Notes: generated from the letters alone by a model not told the origin. A stretch of 64,000 bases of DNA from Candidatus Nomurabacteria bacterium (GCA_052035195.1 JBPOHU010000001.1:104031-168030), one strand, 5' to 3'; counted from the stretch's first letter, positions 1,917 through 46,360 are shown. A program made the numbers and translations.

Positions 1917-2327
1917 TTGCCACACTATAGCAAAAATATTGATTTTTTTCAAAGCTATGGTAATGTAAGAAAAAAAGTAAAAATGCATAAATATCTTGCA
2001 CAACTATTAGTATCTTTACCTAGCGATATACCAAATTTACCTTTTTACAATCTCCATAAAAACATAGACGGTGATAGTATTGGCAGTACTTATTCTTCAG
2101 ACATTGCAAATTCTTTATTTGAAGATTTTGATACTATGTGGAGTATCAGTGATCTTCAGAAACTCATCAATAAGTTTGATTTTAAGAAATTTCGATCATG
2201 TGTGTCAATTAAAATCTACGATCGAGAGAAAGATATGATCGAGACTCAATATGGAGTAAATGGAGTTGGGGACGCAGCGGTTAACTTTTTGATTTTTTTA
2301 ATAAAAAGAAAAATAGGGCTTAACTAA
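1917..2327 (+). CDS. hypothetical protein
   Basis: 136-aa ORF, no recognisable motif. Confidence 0.3.
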   Translation: MPHYSKNIDFFQSYGNVRKKVKMHKYLAQLLVSLPSDIPNLPFYNLHKNIDGDSIGSTYSSDIANSLFEDFDTMWSISDLQKLINKFDFKKFRSCVSIKIYDREKDMIETQYGVNGVGDAAVNFLIFLIKRKIGLN

Positions 2328-2345
2328 AAAATAGTTAGGCTTTTT

Positions 2346-2795
2346 TTATTGCTCTATATTTTTATGATTTTCGTGAGCCTTAGTGTGTAGGATTTCTAGT
2401 TTTTTTGAAATAAGGATAAGCTCGTCTTTTATATCAGCAATAGCTGTCACTTCATTTTTAAGATCTTCTTCTGTTCTTTCACTAAGTTTCTTTTCGCCAC
2501 GAAGACCAGAGAGGATAAGTTCATTACCAATAAAGCTAGAAGTGAATGCTCTAGTGAAGTACAAAATAATAAAACCAATTAAAAATGATAGTGGTCCGTC
2601 CCACCAAAGGCCAGATGGCAAACTCAAAGAAGAAGATAGAGATAGGCTACTAATCATTTCATGAAGGTAGTCTGCGCTGTGCCATACTCCACGCCAAAAT
2701 AAGACTATACCTATTCCAACTATTAGAGCGTATGTTTTTGGGTGATGACTAAGCTTTTCTTGGATTTTATGTTTTGTTTTTTTGAAGATACTCAT
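2346..2795 (-). CDS. hypothetical membrane protein
   Basis: 149-aa ORF with hydrophobic segments (IVGIGIVLFWRGVW, LIGFIILYF). Confidence 0.35.
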   Translation of the reverse strand: MSIFKKTKHKIQEKLSHHPKTYALIVGIGIVLFWRGVWHSADYLHEMISSLSLSSSLSLPSGLWWDGPLSFLIGFIILYFTRAFTSSFIGNELILSGLRGEKKLSERTEEDLKNEVTAIADIKDELILISKKLEILHTKAHENHKNIEQ

Positions 2796-2821
2796 GTTTC
2801 TATTTTACACTTTTTATTTTG

Positions 2822-2895
2822 TGCGCGATACAGGGATCGAACCTGTCACCTCAGCAATGTCAATGCTGCGCTCTAACCATATGAGCTAACCGCGC
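2822..2895 (-). tRNA. tRNA-Val (anticodon GAC)
   Basis: Reverse complement folds as a cloverleaf: acceptor GCGCGGT/ATCGCGC, D-stem GCTC/GAGC, anticodon stem CAGCA/TGCTG with loop TTGACAT, T-arm ACAGG-TTCGATC-CCTGT. No encoded CCA. Confidence 0.8.
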
Positions 2896-2983
2896 GAGTT
2901 GGTCAAAAAATTATAACAGGAATATCAAATATTTGCCAATAATAATATTTTGTGGTATAAAAAACTAAACTAAAACCATTATT

Positions 2984-3472
2984 ATGGAACTGAAAACCAA
3001 TGTTCTTTGCGATCTGCGGGGCGCAGATATAGCACTTTTTCCTCTGTTTGATAAAAACGGGATTGAATATAAAAAGTTTATTTCGAAAGAAGTCTCAGAG
3101 TGGGACATTATCGGAGTGGCTAGCCTGCCGCCATTTTTTTTGAACCGTTTAAATTTTTATGATGAAAACGGCAAAACTTATTTTAAGGACAAGGGAAAAG
3201 AAGTACCCGTTGTGATTTCTTCTATTAATTATGAACAACTTGAAAAAACCACCGTTTCCGAATTTTGGAACCAGTGCATGATGGTCGCTCATAAGGGGGT
3301 TCGGCCTCGTATTTGGATTCTGGCCCCAGATGATGTATGTAAGTACATCATTAGTCAATACATAGGAGAGGAGACTGCTGGCTTCTATCTCCATAATGAA
3401 GACACGGAGATCAACCTTTACTATGCTATCGAAAAAATTGGTAGCACAATAAAGGCCCATAAGATGTTTTAA
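2984..3472 (+). CDS. hypothetical protein
   Basis: 162-aa ORF between two tRNA genes; no recognisable domain; followed by a strong terminator. Confidence 0.4.
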   Translation: MELKTNVLCDLRGADIALFPLFDKNGIEYKKFISKEVSEWDIIGVASLPPFFLNRLNFYDENGKTYFKDKGKEVPVVISSINYEQLEKTTVSEFWNQCMMVAHKGVRPRIWILAPDDVCKYIISQYIGEETAGFYLHNEDTEINLYYAIEKIGSTIKAHKMF

Positions 3473-3482
3473 AATAATCAGC

Positions 3483-3508
3483 CACCCCAAGTAAGGGGTG
3501 GTTTTTTG
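3483..3508 (+). terminator. rho-independent terminator
   Basis: CCACCCC-aagtaa-GGGGTGG followed by TTTTTTG. Confidence 0.7.
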
Positions 3509-3559
3509 ATTTTTTAGGAACTCATGTTAGAATGTTTTCGCTCATAAGGCACAACTTAT

Positions 3560-3631
3560 GGCCCTATCGTCTATCGGTTAGGACGAAAGCTTTTCAAGCT
3601 TTAAAGCGGGGTTCGACTCCCCGTAGGGTCA
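3560..3631 (+). tRNA. tRNA-Glu (anticodon TTC)
   Basis: Cloverleaf: acceptor GGCCCTA/TAGGGTC, D-stem GTCT/GGAC, anticodon stem AAAGC/GCTTT with loop TTTTCAA, T-arm CGGGG-TTCGACT-CCCCG, discriminator A. Confidence 0.8.
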
Positions 3632-3643
3632 CAACGCAAAAAG

Positions 3644-3667
3644 AAAAACGCCTTCCAGGGCGTTTTT
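3644..3667. terminator. bidirectional intrinsic terminator nested in a longer inverted repeat
   Basis: AAAAACGCC-ttccag-GGCGTTTTT; the outer arms GGGTCACAACGC (3626-3637) and GCGTTGTGACCC (3669-3680) are also inverted. Confidence 0.6.
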
Positions 3668-3828
3668 CGCGTTGTGACCCTAAGTAAAACAACTGCTTGT
3701 TTTACGGCGGGGAGGCGAACAGCGGAGCTATATTTTTCTAGCAAGAAAAATAGGCGAGCTGGTGCCCAGACAAAATTTTTTGACTGAAAAAGTTTTAATC
3801 GAGGGAGACAAATGAAATGATCCCCGTA

Positions 3829-3855
3829 GGGTCACGAATTTGGGTAATAAAAAAG
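3829..3855 (+). repeat. repeat module M1 copy 1 (GGGTCACGAATTTGGGTAATAAAAAAG), preceded by duplicated tRNA-Glu 3' end
   Basis: Near-identical copies at 5160-5186 and 5799-5825. At this copy the 5' side extends to TCCCCGTAGGGTCAC (3821-3835), identical to tRNA-Glu 3' end 3618-3632. Confidence 0.8.
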
Positions 3856-3880
3856 CCTACAATGTTTTCATCATAGGCTT
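3853..3880 (-). terminator. intrinsic terminator of cassette gene A (minus strand)
   Basis: Minus-strand read: AAGCCTA-tgatgaaaacattg-TAGGCTT followed by TTTTTTATT. Confidence 0.6.
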
Positions 3881-3898
3881 TAAGTTCAGTAAAATACA

Positions 3899-4666
3899 TT
3901 ATGCAGGTATTGAGAACAGTTCCAGGGATTTTTTAACATAATCTCTGGCTGTTTCAATATTAAGGCTATCGTATTCTTTGTTACGCAGCCGTCCTTCTGC
4001 ATCAATGCTTAGGTCCGGGAAATCTTTTACCAACGGCTCGATCAGGTCAAGCGTTGTCGGGCTCAGTCCACCAGCTACACCCAGGCCGAAGTCATTCGGT
4101 TTTACACTTAATGCTTCCAGGTAGCTTCTGGCAATGTCAGGGTTAAATGGCTGTCCTGTTCCACCGCTCGGATCGAGCAGAACGTAGTCAATAAGACCAG
4201 CATATTCGCTGTGTACCTTGTCGGCCAACTTCTTTGGTGAATGTGATATTTCTTCAAAGGCACCACCGCCAATCTGCAGAACAATACTTTTGTCAGGATG
4301 CAGTTCTTTGTAATCCTCCAGTACTCTTACTGAAGGCCATGCGATGTTCAGCTGGAACCCGTTGAAGTGATTACCGGCGAGTTCAGTTACCAACAAAAGT
4401 TGTGGTAGCAGGCTTTCAGGTTCTTTGGTGTTGAAGTGCACCAGGTTCAGGCAGTCTTCAATGTTAGGAAAAATGTTTACCACTTCTCCGATTGCCGGAT
4501 AACGGCCGGGCCATTTGTTCGGAATTCCTTGCAGACTTTTACTGCTTGCGAGAACTCCCACCATCAACATCCTGTCTGCCTTTTTAAGGTCAGTACTGTC
4601 CAGGACGCCAAAGACTTCGGTAGGGGACATAAACCCCGTGATGCCAACATAAGGTTTCTTTTTCAT
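3899..4666 (-). CDS. phosphoribosylanthranilate isomerase (TrpF)-like TIM-barrel protein; cassette gene A
   Basis: MKKKPYVGITGF..., LLDPSGGTGQPFNPD and GLGVAGGLSPTTL match TrpF motifs (KICGIT / LLDxxGGTGxxFDW / LAGGL). Visibly higher GC than its neighbours. The ORF-finder's TTG start at 4723 probably just reads through the conserved leader. Confidence 0.5.
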   Translation of the reverse strand: MKKKPYVGITGFMSPTEVFGVLDSTDLKKADRMLMVGVLASSKSLQGIPNKWPGRYPAIGEVVNIFPNIEDCLNLVHFNTKEPESLLPQLLLVTELAGNHFNGFQLNIAWPSVRVLEDYKELHPDKSIVLQIGGGAFEEISHSPKKLADKVHSEYAGLIDYVLLDPSGGTGQPFNPDIARSYLEALSVKPNDFGLGVAGGLSPTTLDLIEPLVKDFPDLSIDAEGRLRNKEYDSLNIETARDYVKKSLELFSIPA

Positions 4667-4689
4667 TGTTAAATTTTTCTTTACATTAA

Positions 4690-4737
4690 CATTTCCATTA
4701 GATTCGTCAATATTAGGTTCCAAAACTCACTATAAAG
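4690..4737 (-). promoter_or_regulatory. conserved promoter/leader module M2, copy A (minus strand: TTGACG-N16-TGnTAATGT)
   Basis: Minus-strand read: ...GTGAGTTTTGGAACCTAATATTGACGAATCTAATGGAAATGTTAATGTAAAG..., near-identical to copies at 5752-5799 and 6443-6467, always directly upstream of a start codon. Confidence 0.6.
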
Positions 4738-4749
4738 TCTTGTGAACAA

Positions 4750-4785
4750 GAAAGCCGCCCATTTTATGGACGGCTACAACTTCAA
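4750..4785 (-). terminator. intrinsic terminator of the 79-aa gene (minus)
   Basis: Minus-strand read: GCCGTCCA-taaaa-TGGGCGGC followed by TTTCTTGTT. Confidence 0.5.
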
Positions 4786-4793
4786 AATCTTTT

Positions 4794-5033
4794 TCACAAT
4801 TTAACTGAAAGCAAAACCTTTGCAACCTCAACAACTTCTTCCAGATTTGAATATAAACCGTTTGCTATGCTTTCTACAAAATCTGTATAAAGATAGCATT
4901 CCGGTTCATTATCTCGTCTTTCGTTCATTGCACGTGATAGTCTACTAAGAGATTTTATGCTTTCAATTTCTTTAACTACTGCTTCTTTGGTTAACTTTTC
5001 CATGATTATTTGTTTTGTTTTCGCAACTAACAA
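4794..5033 (-). CDS. small hypothetical protein (79 aa; 69 aa if the ATG at 5003 is used)
   Basis: ORF with SD AAGGAAAC 9 nt upstream of the TTG at 5033; own canonical promoter and own terminator; sits between cassette units. Confidence 0.4.
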   Translation of the reverse strand: MLVAKTKQIIMEKLTKEAVVKEIESIKSLSRLSRAMNERRDNEPECYLYTDFVESIANGLYSNLEEVVEVAKVLLSVKL

Positions 5034-5065
5034 ATCAAAAAAGTTTCCTTAAAAGCCTTTAATTA

Positions 5066-5094
5066 ATATTAGCATATTATTAACACTTTGTCAA
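5066..5094 (-). promoter_or_regulatory. sigma70-type promoter TTGACA-N17-TAATAT (minus strand)
   Basis: Minus-strand read: TTGACAAAGTGTTAATAATATGCTAATAT. Confidence 0.55.
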
Positions 5095-5143
5095 TACTAT
5101 GTTAAACTGCATAAATAAATTAATACTTTTAACTATTAGTTTT

Positions 5144-5186
5144 CAAAACTCACTATAAAGGGTCACAAATTTGGGTAATAAAAAAG
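5144..5186 (+). repeat. M2 3' part fused to M1 copy 2 (CAAAACTCACTATAAAGGGTCACAAATTTGGGTAATAAAAAAG)
   Basis: Direct sequence identity with 5781-5825 and partial identity with 3829-3855 / 4721-4737. Confidence 0.8.
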
Positions 5187-5203
5187 AACTGAATAATCAG
5201 TCC
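5186..5203 (-). terminator. intrinsic terminator of cassette gene B (minus)
   Basis: Minus-strand read: GGACTGA-ttat-TCAGTTC followed by TTTTTTATT (the T-tract is the M1 A-run). Confidence 0.55.
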
Positions 5204-5229
5204 TTTAAAAAAATACTTTAGATTTAAAT

Positions 5230-5727
5230 CTATCTCTTTCCAACAAGGAATCTTGCTGTTGGGGATAAGGATATATTTTTATTTACCTCAATAAAACCAA
5301 GGTTGTAAAGACAACCGTTTCCATCTGGTTGTAAATAAACTATTCCCGGTATACCGTCACCATCGGATACATCATCCATTAGTGACACAATAGCTGTTCC
5401 ACGATCAAAATTAGTAGTTCTTAAGTGGTTAATGTAGTTAATAACATAAGTAACACTAATTTTTGAGTAACCCATCTGGAGACTTTTTTCTATTACGTCT
5501 TCCATTGTAAAAGTGTCACCGAGACCGAGATCGTTTTTATCAATAACACCTATTTCGCTCAATGGAGCAATAGGATTCTCGAGGGGTACATCTACCAATC
5601 TGCTGACGCTACCACCAGTCATTAGGTCTCCATAAATATCGTCTACATTTCTACTTTTTAATATTTTTTCTGCCTCTTTTACACTGAGGAATTGAGAAAA
5701 CCCATCTGTTCTAATTGTATAGTTCAT
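5230..5727 (-). CDS. hypothetical protein, cassette gene B
   Basis: 165-aa ORF, ATG directly downstream of M2 copy B with SD AAGGAAAA; AT-rich; no recognisable domain. Confidence 0.5.
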   Translation of the reverse strand: MNYTIRTDGFSQFLSVKEAEKILKSRNVDDIYGDLMTGGSVSRLVDVPLENPIAPLSEIGVIDKNDLGLGDTFTMEDVIEKSLQMGYSKISVTYVINYINHLRTTNFDRGTAIVSLMDDVSDGDGIPGIVYLQPDGNGCLYNLGFIEVNKNISLSPTARFLVGKR

Positions 5728-5751
5728 GTTAATAAATTTTCCTTACCTTAT

Positions 5752-5799
5752 CATTTCCACGATATTCGTCAATATAGGTTTCAAAAACTCACTACAAAG
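5752..5799 (-). promoter_or_regulatory. conserved promoter/leader module M2, copy B
   Basis: Minus-strand read: GTGAGTTTTTGAAACCTATATTGACGAATATCGTGGAAATGATAAGGTAAGGAAAATTTATTAAC-ATG; -35 TTGACG, 16-nt spacer, extended -10 TGATAAGGT. Confidence 0.6.
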
Positions 5800-5825
5800 G
5801 GTCACAAATTTGGGTAATAAAAAAG
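5799..5825 (+). repeat. repeat module M1 copy 3
   Basis: GGGTCACAAATTTGGGTAATAAAAAAG identical to 5160-5186. Confidence 0.8.
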
Positions 5826-5864
5826 CCCACATAATTGCGGACTTGTATAGATTTTTTTACAGAG

Positions 5865-6404
5865 CTATTTAGCTAAAAGCGCTTTCATTACCAATAAATG
5901 TGCGGCATCCTTTAATAACCCTGGAGCATTCAATATCATACCTTTCGGTTTAATATGACCAAAGTGTGTACTAGGAACTCTTCCCAATGAATTTATTCCG
6001 TTTAAAGGATCAAGAAAAAGGTTTTTTTCTTTAAGTAGGCTGACGCCTCTTCCCCAAAGTATTTCAGCCGTATGACTGAAATCCCATCTTGTTACAACAA
6101 CTGAGTAACGTCTACCATTGCGTTTACAATGTTTCCTTTGAATTGTAATAACAACATCAGATTCTACTTCATTTTTTGCTACTTCAAAAATAGGCGTATC
6201 AAATTTATGTATTCTTTCGATAGTATCTAAGCGTTCCTGTTTGGCAAGTTGCAATAAATTGCAATTTGGACCGATACAGGGTTCTTTTACAAATACTTTC
6301 AATTTGATATTTTTAAGCTCAAGATTAGGAATAGATATTCCGGCAATTTCTGCACAAGTGTACAACAAGGTATCTGGGTTTGGGGATAATATTAATGCAT
6401 CCAT
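5865..6404 (-). CDS. hypothetical protein, cassette gene C (contains an Rx4H motif RWDFSH)
   Basis: ORF with in-frame ATG at 6404 (MDALILSPNP...). The finder's longer version starts at 6485 inside the M2 leader and would overlap the HxlR stop. RWDFSH resembles a HEPN Rx4-6H motif, but this is tentative. Confidence 0.45.
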   Translation of the reverse strand: MDALILSPNPDTLLYTCAEIAGISIPNLELKNIKLKVFVKEPCIGPNCNLLQLAKQERLDTIERIHKFDTPIFEVAKNEVESDVVITIQRKHCKRNGRRYSVVVTRWDFSHTAEILWGRGVSLLKEKNLFLDPLNGINSLGRVPSTHFGHIKPKGMILNAPGLLKDAAHLLVMKALLAK

Positions 6405-6442
6405 ATAGACTGTTTTTGTGTAAAGATTTTTTACCACACTAC

Positions 6443-6467
6443 CATTTCCATGATATTCGTCAATATA
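6443..6467 (-). promoter_or_regulatory. conserved promoter/leader module M2, copy C (partial, abuts HxlR stop)
   Basis: Minus-strand read: TTATATTGACGAATATCATGGAAATGGTAGTGTGG; same -35 / conserved spacer GGAAATG / extended -10 TGGTAGTGT. Confidence 0.55.
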
Positions 6468-6469
6468 AC

Positions 6470-6757
6470 TTATTTCTTCCCCCAAGATTCCATAGCATCG
6501 ATAACTTTTTTAAGTTTTTTACCATTTGGAGTTAGGGCGTAGTGAAGCTCATCTTTTTTATAGATTATTTTCTCAGCTTCTAGTCTTTTGAGTTTTAGAG
6601 TTAGAGTTCTAGTGCTTATGCCTGCGAGAGATCGCTCTAGTTCACAAAACCTCATAGGATTATTTAATAAGTCACGAATAATAAGCATAGTCCATGTATC
6701 AGATAGGAGAGTCGCTGTTTTACTAACAGCACAAGATGTATGAGTAGAAGGCTTCAT
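6470..6757 (-). CDS. HxlR-family winged-helix transcriptional regulator
   Basis: CAVSKTATLLSDTWTMLIIRDLLNNPMRFCELERSLAGISTRTLTLKLKRLEAEKII matches the HxlR family pattern; divergent from a YceI-like gene. Confidence 0.65.
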   Translation of the reverse strand: MKPSTHTSCAVSKTATLLSDTWTMLIIRDLLNNPMRFCELERSLAGISTRTLTLKLKRLEAEKIIYKKDELHYALTPNGKKLKKVIDAMESWGKK

Positions 6758-6861
6758 ATAGACAAATCTAACATGTGTGCTGTACCATGTAAAGTACTGT
6801 ACAAAGTAAAGCAATAATATATACTCTTTTTATAACAATTATTTTTTAAATACAAAAAATT

Positions 6862-7389
6862 ATGAAAACATGGAATATTGATACAACTCATTCAGAAATA
6901 GGGTTTAAGGTTAAACACTTGATGATTTCAACTGTTAGAGGACTTTTCTCTTCTTTTGAAGGGTCTATCAGTGCGCAAGACGAAAGCTTTGATAATGGAC
7001 AAATCAGCTTTTCCGCTGACGTAAGCAGTATTGATACAAAAAATGCACAACGTGATGGGCACCTCAAGAGTGCTGACTTCTTTGATGCTGAAAACTTTCC
7101 TAAACTTACTTTCTCTTCAACTTCTGTAAAAAAAGTAGGGGATAACAAACTGGAAATCACTGGAGACCTCACTATGCGAGGAGTAACAAAATCAGTGAGT
7201 CTAAATGCTTCAGTCACAGGCGTAGTTAAAGGTATGGACGGAGCCCAAGTAGCTGGTTTTGAAATTTCTGGAAAGATAAATCGATCTGAATTTGGACTAG
7301 TTTGGAATGCACCACTAGAAACAGGCGGAGTAGTAGTCAGTGACTCTGTCACAATCGAAGCCTTAATAGAAGCAAAAGAACAAGCTTAA
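6862..7389 (+). CDS. YceI-family polyisoprenoid-binding protein
   Basis: WNIDTTHSEIGFKVKHLMISTVRGLFSSFEG...DGHLKSADFFDAENFPKLTF matches YceI-like domain signatures. Confidence 0.75.
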   Translation: MKTWNIDTTHSEIGFKVKHLMISTVRGLFSSFEGSISAQDESFDNGQISFSADVSSIDTKNAQRDGHLKSADFFDAENFPKLTFSSTSVKKVGDNKLEITGDLTMRGVTKSVSLNASVTGVVKGMDGAQVAGFEISGKINRSEFGLVWNAPLETGGVVVSDSVTIEALIEAKEQA

Positions 7390-7399
7390 ATTAATAAAA

Positions 7400-7429
7400 A
7401 AACACCCTAAATTAGAGGGTGTTTTTTTA
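7400..7429 (+). terminator. rho-independent terminator
   Basis: AACACCCT-aaattag-AGGGTGTT followed by TTTTTTAT. Confidence 0.7.
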
Positions 7430-7489
7430 TTAAGTCAAGATTAATTGACTTGCTAGTGGTTACAACGTACCATTCTCAAAAAACTGTAT

Positions 7490-8632
7490 ATGGCTCAACA
7501 AAAATTGTTCGTTGATTCAAATAAAAAACTCAAAAAGGTTCTTCCAAAAGAACATGCTTATGATGAAGAGTTCAAAAGCTTAGATTTTATAATTGTTCCG
7601 TATGCATTTTTATTAGGGATTAAGAAAAACCATAAATTACAGCCTATTATTGAAAATAAAATACTCTGTGAACTTTTTTCTAAAAAAGGATCAGGGGATG
7701 TTGATTTAATCAATTTATTTATCAAAAAAGAGGCGCTTTGGTTTAAAAAAGATCCATCAAAAATGTCTAAGGCAAACAATCTTTTATCAGAAGAAGAATT
7801 AAGACGTATCTTTATTTCTGGAGCACTTGAAATAAAATTTCGTCATAAAAGCATTTCTTCATTAAGAAGGTTGTTTAGGAAAAAGCTTCCTAATTCAAAA
7901 CCACCATTGGTTTTTGGTAAAATTGCTCGTTATATCAACAACGGTGCTAGTCACGAATTTTGGTATGAGGAAACAGGAGAAGAAATAGCTCAATTGTTTC
8001 CAGAATTTAGCCCTGAGCTCATTAAGGCTCTTTTGGCTATTACTTCTATAAGAGCAACGCTTCCTTCGAACGTTACAAAGTCTTTTAAGGCTTTGGATCA
8101 GTTCCATCGAACTGAACAGTTTGAGGTTCCTTTTGGTAAAAAGGGAGACAAGAAGATGATTAAAAGTAATTTTAAGGGTTTTCTTGATGCCCAGCTTCAT
8201 CATTTGAATTTACTTAAAAATGGGCAGTCTCTAACTGATCCAAAAAACCTACTAAAAAACGGGCGAAAGATTAAAATGTTTGCCAGTGCAATGGGGTCAG
8301 TTGAAGATGCTATTGTTGACGATGTTTGGATTACCAGAGCTTTTGGTTGCGACAGAAAAAGAGTTTTTGAAAGTCGTATAACTAGTCAGTCTCCCTCTAA
8401 GGCAATCTATGATGCAACAGAATGGTATTTACAAACTATTTCTAAGCTTGTAGATAAAAAACCAAGAGGTGTATGCGCGATGATTTGGGCGGGTATACGG
8501 CAAGAAACAAACAAAGAAACAGCCCGTTATACTGACCCAATAAAAAATCGACTAAACCATGGACTTTTTTCTGAGCAGTATGGAAACCTGAAACCCTCAA
8601 AAAAAGGAGGGATTGAGTTTGAATTATTTTAA
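7490..8632 (+). CDS. hypothetical protein (380 aa)
   Basis: Long ORF with its own terminator (AAAACCCTTT-aaacaa-AGGGTTTTTTT at ~8630-8660); no motif recognised. Confidence 0.4.
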   Translation: MAQQKLFVDSNKKLKKVLPKEHAYDEEFKSLDFIIVPYAFLLGIKKNHKLQPIIENKILCELFSKKGSGDVDLINLFIKKEALWFKKDPSKMSKANNLLSEEELRRIFISGALEIKFRHKSISSLRRLFRKKLPNSKPPLVFGKIARYINNGASHEFWYEETGEEIAQLFPEFSPELIKALLAITSIRATLPSNVTKSFKALDQFHRTEQFEVPFGKKGDKKMIKSNFKGFLDAQLHHLNLLKNGQSLTDPKNLLKNGRKIKMFASAMGSVEDAIVDDVWITRAFGCDRKRVFESRITSQSPSKAIYDATEWYLQTISKLVDKKPRGVCAMIWAGIRQETNKETARYTDPIKNRLNHGLFSEQYGNLKPSKKGGIEFELF

Positions 8633-8729
8633 AACCCTTTAAACAAAGGGTTTTTTTATATACCTTTTTATCTTTTGGCAATCTTACGGATAGCAATTAT
8701 TTCTATATAATTTAAGCAAATATACACTA

Positions 8730-9914
8730 ATGAGAAATAGTACTTTAAAATCTGATTCAGAAGTGTCTAATCAAAATTTTCAAGAACAAAGTCATGTTTG
8801 GTCAAATGCCTGGCTGCCTCTTGATTTAGTTATTAAGTTTCCTCAAGTACGCAAAACCTTTGAAAAGGAATCATTGCAAGAGTTAGCTGATGATATAGCA
8901 AAAAATGGGCTTATACAGCCACCGATGATTGCTAAGTTATCAAAAGAAAATTTTGCAAAATATGTTGAAGTTTTTGAAAAAATATCAAAAACAAAACTTT
9001 TGCAATCAAGCTATCAATTTGAGGAAACTAATACTGGTGAAGTTTGGTATCATGTTTTAGTTGCCGGAGAACGTCGCTACAGAGCACATATGATTCTTTG
9101 GGAAACTGGTTGTACTGACTGCATAAATTCTGCAAGAGATAATAAAAAAACTCTTGAGAAAGGAGAATGCTTTTCAAAGCACTTTCCTCAGCAGTTAATG
9201 GAATCAAGGGTTGGTATTAATATTGACCCAGAAAAAGCAAAAAGTATTCAGTTTCGTGAAAATCATCATGTCAGACCTCCAGCCCATGAAGAAGCTTATG
9301 GTTACCGGGATTATTATGATCACCTGAAAACACTTAATCAAAAACTCACCCTTAAAGAATTTGCTGAAAGGGTAGGAGTTTCAGTTGAAAAAGTTCGGAG
9401 AGCCATATGGTTCTGTGAACTTCCAGACAGATTACGCCAAACAGTGGAAGACAAAATGATTTCGTACTCAAATGCCTTGGAGTTAAAACGTATCCTTCAA
9501 ATAGAAAGCATTGGTTTTAAAGAAAGAATTAAGATTATTAACAACGAAGTAGACTTCCTTCTTATTCATCAAAAGATAAAGAATGAAGATTACAAAAAGA
9601 GAGTCGATAATCTTATTTCTAGTTTTCAAATGCTAACATTGTTCGATACTAAAGAATTTGAAATGGGTAAAAAAGAGAAGCGCAAAGTAGTAAACGAAAA
9701 CCTACTTAAGGGTATTATCCTAATGAGGGGGTATATGACCAAGCTAAACGCTATTATTCCTATGGGAATTATTGGTAAAGGTAGGGTGTATTCAGGTATT
9801 TCTCCAACTAACCAGGTTAAGTTCATCGTTGAAGAGCTCCAAAAAATTATTCCCGGGTTTAAACCTACGAAGCAACAACTGGAACAATTCAAAAAAATTG
9901 ATTTAGACATTTAA
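8730..9914 (+). CDS. ParB/Srx-like nuclease-domain protein with HTH and a Cys-rich insert
   Basis: VLVAGERRYRAHMIL (the ParB GERRxRA box) and KLTLKEFAERVGVSVEKVRRAIWF (ParB-type HTH). Extra CTDC...C cluster between them. Terminator AAAACCCCTCA-ttcg-TGAGGGGTTTTT follows. Confidence 0.55.
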   Translation: MRNSTLKSDSEVSNQNFQEQSHVWSNAWLPLDLVIKFPQVRKTFEKESLQELADDIAKNGLIQPPMIAKLSKENFAKYVEVFEKISKTKLLQSSYQFEETNTGEVWYHVLVAGERRYRAHMILWETGCTDCINSARDNKKTLEKGECFSKHFPQQLMESRVGINIDPEKAKSIQFRENHHVRPPAHEEAYGYRDYYDHLKTLNQKLTLKEFAERVGVSVEKVRRAIWFCELPDRLRQTVEDKMISYSNALELKRILQIESIGFKERIKIINNEVDFLLIHQKIKNEDYKKRVDNLISSFQMLTLFDTKEFEMGKKEKRKVVNENLLKGIILMRGYMTKLNAIIPMGIIGKGRVYSGISPTNQVKFIVEELQKIIPGFKPTKQQLEQFKKIDLDI

Positions 9915-17798: not shown

Positions 17799-18674
17799 TT
17801 GAACATGAAAAAGAAAAGAATTATCCTGTTTATCGCAATGATCCTTGGATGCATTGCTTTCCCTATCTTTTTTTGGAAATCATTGAGTGTCTGGCTAACC
17901 CCGTTGTTTCCGATCGCATTGACGCTTTATGTTTGTGCAATCAAAAAATACCGGAGATGGGTCTATGTAGAGGAATTGAAAGGAAACATTTTCCTGTACA
18001 TTACTCTTGTAGCAGCCTTGGTCAGTACCACTCTGCAGTTCTGGCAGCAGATTATCATTACCCTTTCTCAATTCATAAAATATATGAATGAACCAGCCTT
18101 TATTTGGGTAATGGGAATTCTCGCTATTCTCGTAGTTATTGCACTCGTTGTGCTTATCATAAGAGAGTATCGAGAAAAGAAGGCTGACAAAAAAAGAGCA
18201 TTAGTGTGTAAAGCACAAAATGCTGCTGACGAAATTAAAAGGCAAACCAAAAATGAAGAGCGGAAAAAGATGAAAGAAGAGGGGCAACAAATGCTCCGTG
18301 CACTCATGATCAAAAGCTCAGAACTATCCTGGAAAGACCTGTTAAAGATTATGGACAAAGGAGTCCAAATTCCCGATGAGATGGTGTTGCGTGCAAACTT
18401 CTTTGACTTAATTGAAGTGTCGAATGTGAAGAATCAAATCTTCTACAATCCTCATTTGATCAGACAAATGGTCTCTGCGCTCGGTCAGGCGGCAGATGAT
18501 TGTCACAATGACAGTCATTTGCAAAGAGTAAGGGTTCAACTGGAAAAGTTGAGAACCTTGAGCCCTTATCTCGGATATAATAGTCTTATGGCTATTTTCA
18601 GAAAAAATGAGTATCTCCTGAATACCTTCGGGAATATACACTGGCTTGAAAAAGAAAGCGTAAATGTTCAATGA
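17799..18674 (+). CDS. hypothetical membrane protein
   Basis: N-terminal TM helices, charged coiled region, then a C-terminal soluble domain; GC slightly above the local average. Confidence 0.4.
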   Translation: MNMKKKRIILFIAMILGCIAFPIFFWKSLSVWLTPLFPIALTLYVCAIKKYRRWVYVEELKGNIFLYITLVAALVSTTLQFWQQIIITLSQFIKYMNEPAFIWVMGILAILVVIALVVLIIREYREKKADKKRALVCKAQNAADEIKRQTKNEERKKMKEEGQQMLRALMIKSSELSWKDLLKIMDKGVQIPDEMVLRANFFDLIEVSNVKNQIFYNPHLIRQMVSALGQAADDCHNDSHLQRVRVQLEKLRTLSPYLGYNSLMAIFRKNEYLLNTFGNIHWLEKESVNVQ

Positions 18675-36582: not shown

Positions 36583-36614
36583 TAAAAAAACATTCAATAC
36601 AGAATGTTTTTTTA
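36583..36614. terminator. bidirectional intrinsic terminator
   Basis: AAAAAAACATTC-aataca-GAATGTTTTTTTATTT. Confidence 0.65.
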
Positions 36615-37151
36615 TTTCACCAACTCAAAAAATACTTGTTCAGTTTCTGGATCTATTTTGTCAGTTACGAAAACCATTAGTTCAGTAATGAGTCCAAAGT
36701 CTTTTTTGATATTAGTGAATAGGTGTTCATAAGGGAAAGGGGAGATCCAAACACTATTTTTAAGACACAAGAATCCTGCTTTTTTTAGAAGGTAGCGAAA
36801 GCTCTCCCTCTCGTCTTTGCGAGATTCTGGTAGGTCGAGCAATACGATACGCCATTTACCGTCCCATGCAGGACTAAGGGCACTTGTGTCTCCAAGGACT
36901 AGACTATGAACCTTCTTTTTACCTTCTTTGGTAAGGCGCGCGTACTGATTCTGTCCAGAGAAGGTTTGCTCTATGAGCCCGGTATCCCGAAGCCCTTTTA
37001 AAGAGCGAGAAATCGCGCTAGCGCCCCGCAAAGCCTTGGCGTCGTAGGGAAAGTCACCTGAGACGTTTTTGATGAGTTCAGGCACTGAAATAGCCGGTTT
37101 TTCAGCCAATAATTTCAATATTTTCTTTGAAAATCCGCCATTTGTTGACAT
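36612..37151 (-). CDS. PaaX-family-like transcriptional regulator
   Basis: N-terminal wHTH (KILKLLAEKPAISVPELIKNV...LRDTGLIEQ) and DGKWRIVLLDLPESRKDERESFRYLLKKAGFLCLKNSVWISP, matching the PaaX C-terminal pattern. Divergent from dnaK. Confidence 0.5.
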   Translation of the reverse strand: MSTNGGFSKKILKLLAEKPAISVPELIKNVSGDFPYDAKALRGASAISRSLKGLRDTGLIEQTFSGQNQYARLTKEGKKKVHSLVLGDTSALSPAWDGKWRIVLLDLPESRKDERESFRYLLKKAGFLCLKNSVWISPFPYEHLFTNIKKDFGLITELMVFVTDKIDPETEQVFFELVK

Positions 37152-43531: not shown

Positions 43532-43911
43532 TTATGCTTTTTTTGAGCTTGCTTTTTTAGTTCGACCGTATGAGTCCTGTACGCGAACAATATCAGATTC
43601 TTCAAAATGCCCTGTGGCTATTTCGAGTATTTGAAGGGGAGTTTCAGCGATGATTCTGTGGAGCGTTTTCGGGGGTACTGTAAACTCCTTACCAGGCTTT
43701 GCTACGTATTTCTTTTTACCAACAACAACAAATCCTGTGCCAGAAATGATGTGCCAAAATTCTGCTCTATCATGATGATATTGAAGTGAGAGAGATGCTC
43801 CTGCTTTTACGTGTATTATTTTTATAGTTGAAGGTTCGTTATAGGTATAGCGATTAAAAAATCCCCAAGGTCTCTTTTCTGTATAGAAATTTTTGAGAGA
43901 ATTTTTCATAT
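43532..43911 (-). CDS. cupin-domain protein (mannose-6-phosphate isomerase type II C-terminal-like)
   Basis: SLQYHHDRAEFWHIISGTG...PPKTLHRI cupin motifs. Start MKNSLKNF at 43911. The finder's extension to 44347 overlaps dnaJ on the other strand and is rejected. Confidence 0.55.
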
Positions 43912-43984
43912 AAATATGTACCAAGTGTACCATACAAAAATCAAAAAATATGGTATAATACCTGTGTAAAAGTGGAGAAATACT

Positions 43985-45049
43985 ATGAGCAAGGATTACT
44001 ATAAAACATTGGGAGTAGAAAAGGGCGCATCGAAAGATGAAATAAAAAAAGCCTTCCATAAAATGGCTCACAAATACCACCCTGATAAAAGCGGTGGAGA
44101 TGAAGCCAAATTCAAAGAGGTAAATGAAGCCTACCAAACACTCTCTGACGACCAAAAAAGAGCTAGTTATGATCAGTTTGGTTCTGATGGCCCTCAAATG
44201 GGTGGTTTTGGCGGTGGAGGATTCGATGGTTTTGACTTTAGTGGTTTTGGCCAAGGTCAAGGCGGTTTTGAGTTCGACATAGGAGATATGTTCGGAGGTA
44301 TGTTTGGCGGTGGAAGAACACGCAAACCTCGTGGTAACGATCTTCAAACTTCAATGACTATAGACTTCAAAGAGTCTGTCTTTGGTGTTGATAAAGAATT
44401 AAAAGTTACCAAACCTTCAACATGCAACACTTGTAAAGGTGATGGTGCTACTCCTGGAACAAAACTTGAAACTTGTAGTACTTGTAACGGCGCTGGTGTT
44501 GTGAGAAATATTCAACGCACCATACTTGGCTCTATTGCTACAAATCAAACCTGTAGTAAGTGTAATGGTGCAGGTAAAATACCAAAAGATCCTTGCAAGA
44601 CCTGTCGTGGTACAGGAGTAATGAACGACACTAGAACTATCAAAGTCTCTATTCCATCAGGGATACAAAACGGCGAGACACTACGACTCTCTGGTATGGG
44701 AGAAGCTATCCAAGGTGGACCATCAGGAGACCTATATGTACATATGTCTGTTGCTCCACACAAAACTATTTCAAGAAAAGGAACAGACTTATATACCAAT
44801 CTAGATATTAAGCTAACTGACGCCCTACTCGGAGCACAATACTCTATCGAGACACTCGATGGTAATGAAGTTATTTCTATACCAGCTGGTACCAAAATAG
44901 GTAGTACTGTCATAATCAAAGAAAAAGGCGTACCACTATCTAAATCAAAAAGAGGAAACTTTATCGTACAACTAAATATCAAACTCCCAGAAAAACTTTC
45001 AAAAGAAGCAAAAGCAATAATCGAAGAGCTTAAAAAGCAGGGGATATAA
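43985..45049 (+). CDS. dnaJ: chaperone DnaJ
   Basis: J-domain with HPD, a G/F-rich region and four CxxCxGxG zinc-finger repeats. Confidence 0.9.
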   Translation: MSKDYYKTLGVEKGASKDEIKKAFHKMAHKYHPDKSGGDEAKFKEVNEAYQTLSDDQKRASYDQFGSDGPQMGGFGGGGFDGFDFSGFGQGQGGFEFDIGDMFGGMFGGGRTRKPRGNDLQTSMTIDFKESVFGVDKELKVTKPSTCNTCKGDGATPGTKLETCSTCNGAGVVRNIQRTILGSIATNQTCSKCNGAGKIPKDPCKTCRGTGVMNDTRTIKVSIPSGIQNGETLRLSGMGEAIQGGPSGDLYVHMSVAPHKTISRKGTDLYTNLDIKLTDALLGAQYSIETLDGNEVISIPAGTKIGSTVIIKEKGVPLSKSKRGNFIVQLNIKLPEKLSKEAKAIIEELKKQGI

Positions 45050-46015: not shown

Positions 46016-46360
46016 TTAATTTAAAATTTTTTTGGTGTACAGTTTCAAAATTTCCACAAGATCATCACTCACGTGGTAGTAAACACCGGTTCTATTGAGG
46101 TAACCTGAGTCTACTAAGCTATGCAAAGTGGCCAGAACTTCTTTTGGCAGGGGAGAAATGTTCTTACTCTTTGCCAGCTCTTCTGCCGTGAAGTAGGTCC
46201 ATTTTTCAGGATTTTTCTTTTGCTGAAATTTTACAATTTCCTCCAAAAGCGTCTCGGCATCCTCTTTAAAATAAGGTGCAACCTTAAAGTTAGGGACTAC
46301 ATTCAGAGGTAATACTTCGGGGTTAATTAATCCGGTCGAATAACTTACGTGCGGTTCCAT
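46016..46360 (-). CDS. hypothetical protein
   Basis: 114-aa ORF; no domain recognised. Confidence 0.3.
   Translation of the reverse strand: MEPHVSYSTGLINPEVLPLNVVPNFKVAPYFKEDAETLLEEIVKFQQKKNPEKWTYFTAEELAKSKNISPLPKEVLATLHSLVDSGYLNRTGVYYHVSDDLVEILKLYTKKILN

Follow-up and report, generated by a model that had tools for sequence, protein, structure and literature searches.

Gene A, a putative remote homologue of TrpF beside a tRNA-Glu gene in a patescibacterial genome

Known relatives of the barrel and of its setting

The reference for the present comparison is the PRA isomerase TrpF (PF00697 PRAI, EC 5.3.1.24), represented by the enzymes of T. maritima (1LBM/1NSJ), T. kodakarensis (5LHF) and J. 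denitrificans (4WUI). A cysteine at the end of strand 1, C7, is invariant across 26 aligned TrpFs, and in the T. maritima enzyme it is taken here to be the general base. The catalytic aspartate of that enzyme is D126 (PMC9088769). HisA and PriA (the ProFAR isomerase and the dual-substrate isomerase of Actinomycetota) belong to the same barrel superfamily and share its reaction type, and they use Asp instead of Cys as catalytic residue (PMC9088769), which indicates that the chemistry tolerates different residues at this point. The other described barrel that bears on the comparison is MfnB/MJ1099 (4-(hydroxymethyl)-2-furancarboxaldehyde-phosphate synthase, UPF0264), a small phosphate-binding barrel of similar size, which is the top Foldseek match of the protein described below (E 7e-7, TM-score about 0.6).

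The use of a TrpF outside tryptophan synthesis has a precedent in Chlamydia trachomatis, in which TrpF together with RibA provides a route to folate that circumvents FolE/FolQ (Adams et al. 2014, PMC4161248); its substrate is apparently the ribosylamino-pyrimidine phosphate that RibA produces (PMC4161248). The likeness to the present case is that a TrpF-type barrel occurs in a reduced genome without a complete trp pathway and is used, by Amadori-type chemistry, on another N-ribosylamine phosphate. The difference is that chlamydial TrpF is canonical and keeps its PRA isomerase activity, whereas the family described here is far more divergent and has no Cys at that position. Neither RibA nor folate genes were found alongside it.

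The setting of the gene can be compared with tRNA-targeted islands and with integrase-less, cis-mobilisable elements that have att repeats on their flanks, in which direct repeats of a tRNA 3' end likewise bound short segments, but here no integrase was found among the 47 ORFs scanned and the gene is kept at its site in two relatives. An array of single-gene units in one orientation, with a content that varies between close relatives, also recalls integrons and tRNA islands. Integron cassettes are usually promoterless, whereas the units described here carry their own promoter-like leader and terminator, and in place of attC-type inverted repeats, none of which were identified, the shared boundary is a tRNA-derived direct repeat. 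An integron cassette model was considered and is rejected on account of the lack of an integrase among the scanned ORFs, of these leaders and terminators and of the non-palindromic, tRNA-derived nature of the boundary.

A large part of bacterial diversity is accounted for by Patescibacteria, which combine a minimal metabolism, generally without amino-acid biosynthesis, with a gene content of which much is unannotated. In the literature open to search, no relevant account of a TrpF-like family from CPR or Patescibacteria was found. The gene considered here, called gene A, lies in a 64,000-nucleotide stretch of a Candidatus Nomurabacteria genome, which is referred to below as the window. A first-pass annotation had read it as a GC-rich, TrpF-like TIM-barrel gene isolated from other tryptophan genes, carried as cargo in a mobile-looking cassette and possibly acquired horizontally and recruited for another sugar-phosphate isomerisation.

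Gene A and its kinship with TrpF

The mechanical reading frame of gene A extends over 3899-4723, begins with TTG and would encode 274 residues, while the ATG at 4666 gives a protein of 255 residues whose start agrees with that of nearly all homologues (MKKKPY or equivalent). The in-frame extension upstream of this ATG (Table 1) is probably a non-coding, 5' untranslated leader. Within the leader the hexamers TTGACG (4710-4705) and TAATGT (4688-4683) can be read from the sequence with a 16-nt spacer between them, although the TAATGT of the -10 position is too weak for detection in a promoter consensus scan; the orthologues at two related loci, L009 and L011, have TTGACA with TAATGT/TATACT at a distance from the ATG equal to that in gene A. 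The proteins encoded by the orthologues are 78-79% identical, while their 4-fold synonymous sites are only 41-48% identical. As judged from these sequence features, gene A is a real gene under constraint, with its own promoter-like leader and terminator.

Table 1. Positions of gene A, its signals and the neighbouring modules in the window
Feature	Position	Strand	Remarks
tRNA-Glu(UUC)	3560..3632	plus	boundary repeats derive from its 3' end
tRNA-proximal boundary of the gene A unit	3822..3861	plus	exact CCCCGTAGGGTCAC copy at 3822-3835, then repeat D2 at 3828-3861
Intrinsic-terminator-like hairpin	3852..3881	minus	13 pairs and T-run, directly 3' of the gene A stop codon
Gene A coding sequence	3899..4666	minus	putative 255-residue (beta/alpha)8-barrel protein, remote TrpF homologue of a large unannotated family
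In-frame extension upstream of gene A to TTG	4667..4723	minus	overlaps the leader repeat of neighbouring genes
Gene A leader, 66 nt	4672..4737	minus	promoter-like pair; repeated before neighbouring small genes
o79, ORF of 79 residues	4794..5033	minus	within the bracketed segment of gene A; has a terminator and a different promoter-like site of its own
tRNA-distal boundary of the gene A and o79 unit	5145..5192	plus	junction AAAACTCACTATAAAG, then repeat D2 starting with AGGGTCACA
o165 one-gene module	5230..5727	minus	leader, junction and terminator design as in gene A
o179 one-gene module	5865..6404	minus	leader, junction and terminator design as in gene A

The protein contains the motifs YVGITGF (residues 6-12), LLDPSGGTGQPF (163-174) and VAGGL (197-201), and it was these that had been put forward as TrpF hallmarks. 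The gene A protein itself has no match in Pfam (E<=1) or NCBIfam (E<=10), nor in PHROG or PADLOC, and a phmmer search of the PDB returned only noise, so that the family search proposed with the first-pass annotation is negative for the protein alone. When 34 relatives were scanned singly, however, PRAI (PF00697) was the sole Pfam family to recur, being matched by 23 of the 34, always below threshold (best E 1.7e-4). A search of PDB sequences with the family profile ranks Pyrococcus furiosus TrpF first (E 0.061), and hhalign aligns the family with TrpF over the full length at 88% probability (E 3e-6), or at 95% (E 3e-8) when the family is represented by 128 diverse members. The TrpF alignment used (26 TrpFs) was seeded with T. 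maritima TrpF, the seed being identical to 1LBM at 205/205 positions. The resulting profile alignment places the three motifs onto ICGIT, LLD..GGxGKTF and SGGL of TrpF, and the hallmarks are in this sense genuine.

The AF2 model, computed from 34 homologues, has eight beta/alpha units with a pLDDT of 93.5 and a pTM of 0.92. MfnB/MJ1099 and T. kodakarensis TrpF jointly lead its Foldseek matches (E about 1e-6), with TM-scores of about 0.6 that are typical for generic TIM barrels and less discriminating than the profiles; a search of a viral structure library gave generic barrels only. TrpF is the nearest known family by sequence profile and by fold, as had been proposed, although Foldseek places MfnB level with it. 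Identity to TrpF amounts to only 12-16%, and the family differs from TrpF further in a conserved NKWPxRYP loop, in a length greater by about 45 residues and in having Asn for H83. Because every curated threshold is missed and the defining catalytic residue is absent, the gene A protein is classified here as a remote homologue of TrpF and not as a TrpF.

The family is also distinct from TrpF in having no link to trp genes and in its hosts, which are mostly without the pathway. For the window this was evaluated by a Pfam scan of 47 ORFs (9 at E<=1 and 38 at E<=1e-4), which covered most ORFs of at least 170 residues and, outside 1917-9914, few of the shorter ones. None of the 47 belongs to a tryptophan-pathway family, in agreement with the isolation originally claimed for the gene, and none belongs to a recombinase or integrase family. 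The genes recognised by Pfam are ordinary housekeeping genes (among them MreB, RRF, AlaRS, RpoA, S4, GrpE, DnaK, LysRS/AsnRS-type and L9), to which TsaD, TrxR, FtsZ and FtsA are added as genes recognised only through homologues at related loci. By the relatives of its RpoA the genome falls within Patescibacteria, close to Paceibacteria and Nomurabacteria.

A word-indexed search yielded 618 homologues of gene A, all of about 250 residues and without a Pfam domain; all of the named ones are labelled "hypothetical" and come from Patescibacteria. The 274-residue version of gene A is present as a database gene call within the same 90% cluster. An exhaustive profile search returned 2148 representatives of 50%-identity clusters at E<=1e-3, of which 1095 are found at E<=1e-30, and the family therefore comprises at least 2148 clusters at 50% identity. 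The carriers among species-representative genomes are overwhelmingly patescibacterial; the few credible exceptions include two from Chloroflexota, one of them a 3.47-Mb Dehalococcoidia contig. An uncultured phage genome of 485 kb encodes a homologue (39.5% identity, E 4e-42), and further homologues are found on four IMG/VR contigs of 84-232 kb. No domain fusions were found, the longer family members having only short, non-recurrent tails. From its profiles and conserved residues, the family is best described as a large group of enzymes derived from TrpF, so far unannotated, in which the active site has changed.

Active-site residues and the chemistry they suggest

The correspondence between TrpF residues and those of the family was derived from the profile alignment with 128 family members. 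The catalytic aspartate D126 of TrpF corresponds to D165, at the end of strand 6, and Q81 corresponds to Q105, both of which are present in 128/128 members; R36 corresponds to R55, in a loop (121/128), and D178 to D222, on strand 8 (127/128). The GGxG loop after strand 6 becomes S167-G168-G169-x-G171 and the SGGL loop after strand 7 becomes A198-G199-G200-L201; both are conserved, and the phosphate-loop residues aligned to those of TrpF are 85-100% conserved across the family. H83 is replaced by N107 in all 128 members, within a Q-L-x sequence on strand 4 that also contains Q105, and the position of C7 is occupied by Ile (98), Val (24), Phe (2), Leu (2), Ser (1) or Thr (1), so that Ile or Val is found in 122 of the 128 and Cys in none. 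The family has in addition invariant or near-invariant residues of its own, namely Y6, S41, H77, N107, Q131, Y155, S167, E224 and R228. No Lys column reaches 90% conservation (K43 81%, K51 55%, K81 31%), which speaks against chemistry of the MfnB type or that of a Schiff-base aldolase.

Since the catalytic Cys of TrpF is absent, the enzyme most likely handles a different phosphorylated sugar. The parts retained from TrpF would hold the phosphorylated sugar and protonate its ring oxygen, with D165 as the putative acid and a residue other than Cys as the base. The reaction would then be an acid/base isomerisation or a ring opening of a 5-phosphoribosyl-type compound, and candidates for the substrate are an N-ribosylamine and a pentose phosphate of nucleotide salvage. 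Acid/base sugar isomerisation on a 5-phosphoribosyl-type substrate would be the most likely activity. The suggestion that the barrel was recruited for another sugar-phosphate reaction thus continues to be the most reasonable reading, given a replaced Cys beside a retained Asp and retained phosphate loops.

A more specific proposal can be made, but it is speculative and has a low probability of being correct as a whole. It supposes that the family represents a previously unrecognised activity, in which a TrpF barrel with an exchanged base would act on an N-ribosyl or pentose 5-phosphate in the turnover of nucleotides, NAD or ADP-ribose, would serve salvage in Patescibacteria and be carried also by huge phages, and would keep its GC-rich synonymous sites through selection or repeated, phage-linked exchange. 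If this were true, a salvage step would be absent from current metabolic reconstructions of genome-reduced Patescibacteria.

The size of the family, its strong conservation, its confident fold and its clear origin from TrpF make it unusually tractable. It offers a route to a missing reaction, probably one of nucleotide or ribose-phosphate handling, and a natural case for the enzyme-evolution model of TrpF, HisA and PriA, in which the base would have been replaced on a retained scaffold with its acid and phosphate site. The family is worth biochemical characterisation, although no expectation is overturned by it.

The tRNA-Glu flank, residence of the gene and competing readings

The 14-mer CCCCGTAGGGTCAC found at the 3' end of the tRNA-Glu gene (3619-3632) recurs exactly at the near boundary of the gene A unit; the chance expectation for a tRNA-end match with at most 2 mismatches is about 0.035 per shuffled window. 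The 9-nt core of this tRNA end, AGGGTCACA, heads the copies of repeat D2 at 5159 and 5798. D2 is present as 27-34-nt copies at 3828, 5159 and 5798, and 27-mers of this kind are not expected by chance; a third copy of the boundary occupies 5784-5831. The 66-nt leader repeat D1 is found at 4672 and 5734 (82%) and, more weakly, at 5095 and 6425 (61%). Gene A, o165 and o179 are accordingly modules of one design, each consisting of the shared leader, a gene, a terminator hairpin and a repeat. Terminator-like hairpins follow o79 (4775-4753), o165 (5206-5183) and o179 (5844-5823), and no D2 repeat follows o79. The three genes o79, o165 and o179 are not GC-rich and have no Pfam, PHROG or PADLOC match; no plasmid match was obtained, and none of the island genes has a PHROG match. 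The gene o79 was not found in relatives, and o165 and o179 are absent from L009, L011 and a further related locus, L097.

In the close relative L097 synteny is conserved and FtsZ and TrxR are 89% and 85% identical, while gene A, HxlR and YceI are absent, the tRNA block is inverted, and other cargo genes lie behind an identical junction sequence. Because the cargo differs between relatives behind the same junction, the tRNA-Glu flank is a variable array, probably one that old site-specific insertions built up. L009 and L011, on the other hand, carry the gene A orthologue at the same site, and in L009 it is bracketed by two copies of the tRNA-end 14-mer (9566, 11615). The protein is 79% identical in these two relatives, compared with 60-86% for the flanking core genes (tblastn), and the identity of its 4-fold sites (0.41-0.48) is within what the flanking core genes show (0.35-0.48). 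Since the same site is occupied in both relatives with a divergence like that of the core, gene A is probably not a recent acquisition; by this comparison it would have been resident since before the split from the two sampled relatives. The absence from L097, which is compatible with a loss there as well as with a gain in the others, the bracketing tRNA-end repeats and the anomalous GC3 nevertheless leave room for transfer.

The base composition of the gene is anomalous, as had been noted from the start. Its GC of 0.466 and GC3 of 0.469, compared with means of 0.364 and 0.272, both rank first among 69 window ORFs (z about 2.9), and the sliding GC profile has its peak of 0.48 within the gene and drops to 0.29 just outside. 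The anomaly is not confined to this genome. An excess of GC over the flanks is found at 83% of 77 family loci, averaging 4.4 points (Wilcoxon p 3e-11), and in the three syntenic orthologues the GC at 4-fold sites is 0.44-0.52, compared with 0.14-0.36 in flanking genes, although these sites are nearly randomised between the three genomes. An excess common to the orthologues and to the family cannot be read as the mark of a recent import, and un-ameliorated foreign DNA does not account for a GC-rich composition that survives so large a synonymous change. Selection on codons or on the mRNA, and repeated replacement from a GC-richer pool, are candidate explanations. High GC beside a tRNA gene is, on this showing, insufficient evidence for recent transfer.

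The mobile and horizontal parts of the first-pass annotation are therefore only partly sustained. The description as cassette cargo agrees with the module array bounded by tRNA ends and with the locus that is without the gene, but an integrase, a phage-family signal and a plasmid signal were all sought without success in the unit and its surroundings. Horizontal acquisition, similarly, is favoured by the homologue in a huge phage and by the same gap in L097, and is opposed by the core-like divergence in the other two relatives and by the family-wide GC excess. The comparison of composition with other genes, which had been suggested as a check, confirms gene A as the richest ORF without marking it as recently imported.

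Gene neighbourhoods across the family were examined in eleven contexts obtained by exact protein look-up and at eighty GTDB loci. No conserved partner was found: when the three nearest genes on each side were clustered all against all, the best cluster was present at 4 of about 84 loci. The 135 immediate neighbours at about 80 loci contain 141 Pfam families, each of them in at most 3 neighbours, and no trp family is among the 25 most frequent of these. NDK occurs in 3 of the 135 and each of HIT, NUDIX and CYTH in 2; a NUDIX gene lies directly upstream of the homologue in the closest named relative, and at another locus the neighbour is a NADAR gene. In the 485-kb phage, genes for a nucleoside-deoxyribosyltransferase-like protein, a Macro-domain protein and a metallophosphoesterase are located less than 6 kb from the homologue. 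These occurrences hint faintly at a nucleotide-handling theme, while most family loci are ordinary housekeeping contexts. Adjacency to a tRNA gene is not enriched family-wide (upstream 6.9%, compared with 6.1% for other ORFs at the same loci).

The reading preferred here is that gene A would be a functional, singly transcribed barrel enzyme from the TrpF lineage that is not itself a TrpF, and that it is a long-standing resident and not a recent acquisition; it is advanced with somewhat more confidence than doubt. It might be supposed instead that gene A is the organism's genuine but divergent TrpF, with the tryptophan pathway encoded elsewhere, since TrpF is its nearest family by profile and fold, the phosphate loops are kept along with the catalytic Asp and the Arg, and the window shows only 64 kb of the genome. 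This supposition is very improbable in view of a TrpF-invariant Cys that is never present in 128 family members, the lack of a Pfam or NCBIfam match, the absence of trp genes from the scanned window ORFs and from the commonest families in the neighbourhood of about 80 loci, the patescibacterial hosts and the family copy in a phage. Without the Cys base the chemistry may, on the other hand, not be isomerisation, and the protein could be an aldolase, synthase or decarboxylase of MfnB-, ThiE- or KGPDC-like type that has inherited only the phosphate-binding half of TrpF. That the barrel is of this kind is doubtful, as it has no invariant Lys for Schiff-base chemistry, its relatives match PRAI as the only recurrent Pfam family, and the aspartate that serves as the acid in TrpF is invariant.

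Gene A might also be cargo that a mobile cassette brought in recently by insertion at tRNA-Glu, a reading favoured by its first rank in GC and GC3, by the tRNA-Glu 3'-end copies that bracket it in the window (3822, 5159) and in L009, by the leader and junction common to neighbouring modules, by its absence from L097, where different cargo lies behind the same junction, and by the family members in a huge phage and in IMG/VR contigs. This is nonetheless distinctly unlikely, because the same-site orthologues have diverged like core genes both in protein and in their 4-fold sites, all three orthologues and the family at large have a GC-rich synonymous composition, the other cassette genes are not GC-rich, the 47 ORFs scanned include no integrase, no PHROG or plasmid match was obtained, and family members lie beside a tRNA gene no more often than other ORFs. 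It has also to be considered whether gene A acts on an ADP-ribose-derived, NAD-derived or signalling nucleotide in phage-host conflict and not in housekeeping salvage, as might be suggested by a variable island of small uncharacterised genes, by NUDIX and NADAR neighbours at some loci and by the nucleoside-deoxyribosyltransferase-like and Macro-domain genes near the phage homologue. Very little credence is given to this, since neither gene A nor its neighbours have a PADLOC match, such neighbours are rare, and housekeeping contexts prevail at most loci.

Two further neighbourhoods may be mentioned. On one IMG/VR contig the homologue adjoins two DnaB helicase genes, and at two related Chloroflexota loci only, the homologue is directly succeeded by an Amidohydro_2 gene, after 3 nt at one (L073) and after 30 nt at the other (L046).

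Single-gene modules beside the tRNA-Glu gene

The modules of the array that contains the TrpF-like gene A all lie in one orientation, and every one of them has a common leader, a terminator hairpin and a common junction (TTTTTTATTACCCAAATTTGTGACCC / TTTATAGTGAGTTTTG). Close relatives differ in their cargo genes, which in the window are the small ORFs o79, o165 and o179 beside gene A; in the array of the related locus L097 the junction is identical over 26 nt and the cargo genes are different. Read on the plus strand, the junction (AAAACTCACTATAAAGGG) appears similar to ACTCACTATA..GGG, the core motif of promoters used by single-subunit RNA polymerases of the T7/T3 type. A putative promoter at this position would direct transcription antisense to the cassette genes.

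The variable cassette region occupies the 3' side of tRNA-Glu in both the window and L097, but the block of tRNA-Val, the intervening ORF o162 and tRNA-Glu has opposite orientations in the two (2821-3632 in the window, 8873-9768 in L097), and the segment comprising HxlR, YceI and gene A is absent in L097. The pair of DUF7178-like and ParB_N/HTH_ParB-like genes is kept in L097, and the DUF7178-like gene, which is assigned by a weak Pfam match (E 1e-3), is likewise conserved in L011.

In three related genomes the last 14 nt at the tRNA-Glu 3' end (CCCCGTAGGGTCAC) have an exact second copy approximately 150-200 nt downstream of the tRNA. The segment between the copies is conserved in part, with the pattern CTGGTGCCCAGA..TTTTGA.TGA..CGAGGGAGA, and has no match in Rfam. 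The duplication looks like either an old site-specific insertion scar or a small conserved non-coding element.

Coordinates of the features (locus coordinates unless a GenBank accession is given)
Feature	Location	Remark
Single-gene module array	window 3828-6490	minus strand
Counterpart array	L097 6700-8700	
Array junction copies	window 4722-4737, 5145-5162, 5784-5801	plus-strand reading
tRNA-Glu 3'-end 14-nt duplication	window 3619-3835; L009 11615-11783; L097 8719-8886	
DUF7178-like and ParB_N/HTH_ParB-like genes	window 7490-9914	adjoin variable region
Gene A family member, uncultured phage	LR745208.1, 195654-212394 (L096); gene at 8007-8744	485-kb phage; 39.5% identity
Homologue and Amidohydro_2 pair, Chloroflexota	L073 5986-7581; L046 5977-7575	
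Other GC3-rich ORFs	window 2984-3472, 17799-18674, 36612-37151, 43532-44347, 46016-46360	
Two GH130 mannoside-phosphorylase-like, mannose-6-phosphate-isomerase/cupin and PMM/HAD-type phosphatase genes	window 39751-44347	

Gene A homologues in phage and Chloroflexota

The only tight gene pairing observed for the family, found in two Chloroflexota genomes, is that of a homologue with a 266-aa Amidohydro_2 (PF04909) gene on its 3' side, the gap being 3 nt in L073 and 30 nt in L046. Near the phage member lie nucleoside 2-deoxyribosyltransferase-like, Macro-domain and metallophosphoesterase genes, and 2.6 kb downstream of it are five tRNA-Leu genes in a row.

Other features of the window

Five further ORFs have GC3 above 0.40, compared to a genome mean of 0.27, and are possibly also foreign or compositionally constrained; two of the five have no match in Pfam, and a PaaX_M (Cas2-like) domain is present in the ORF at 36612-37151. 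The content of the mannoside gene cluster suggests a salvage module for mannosides within a reduced genome.
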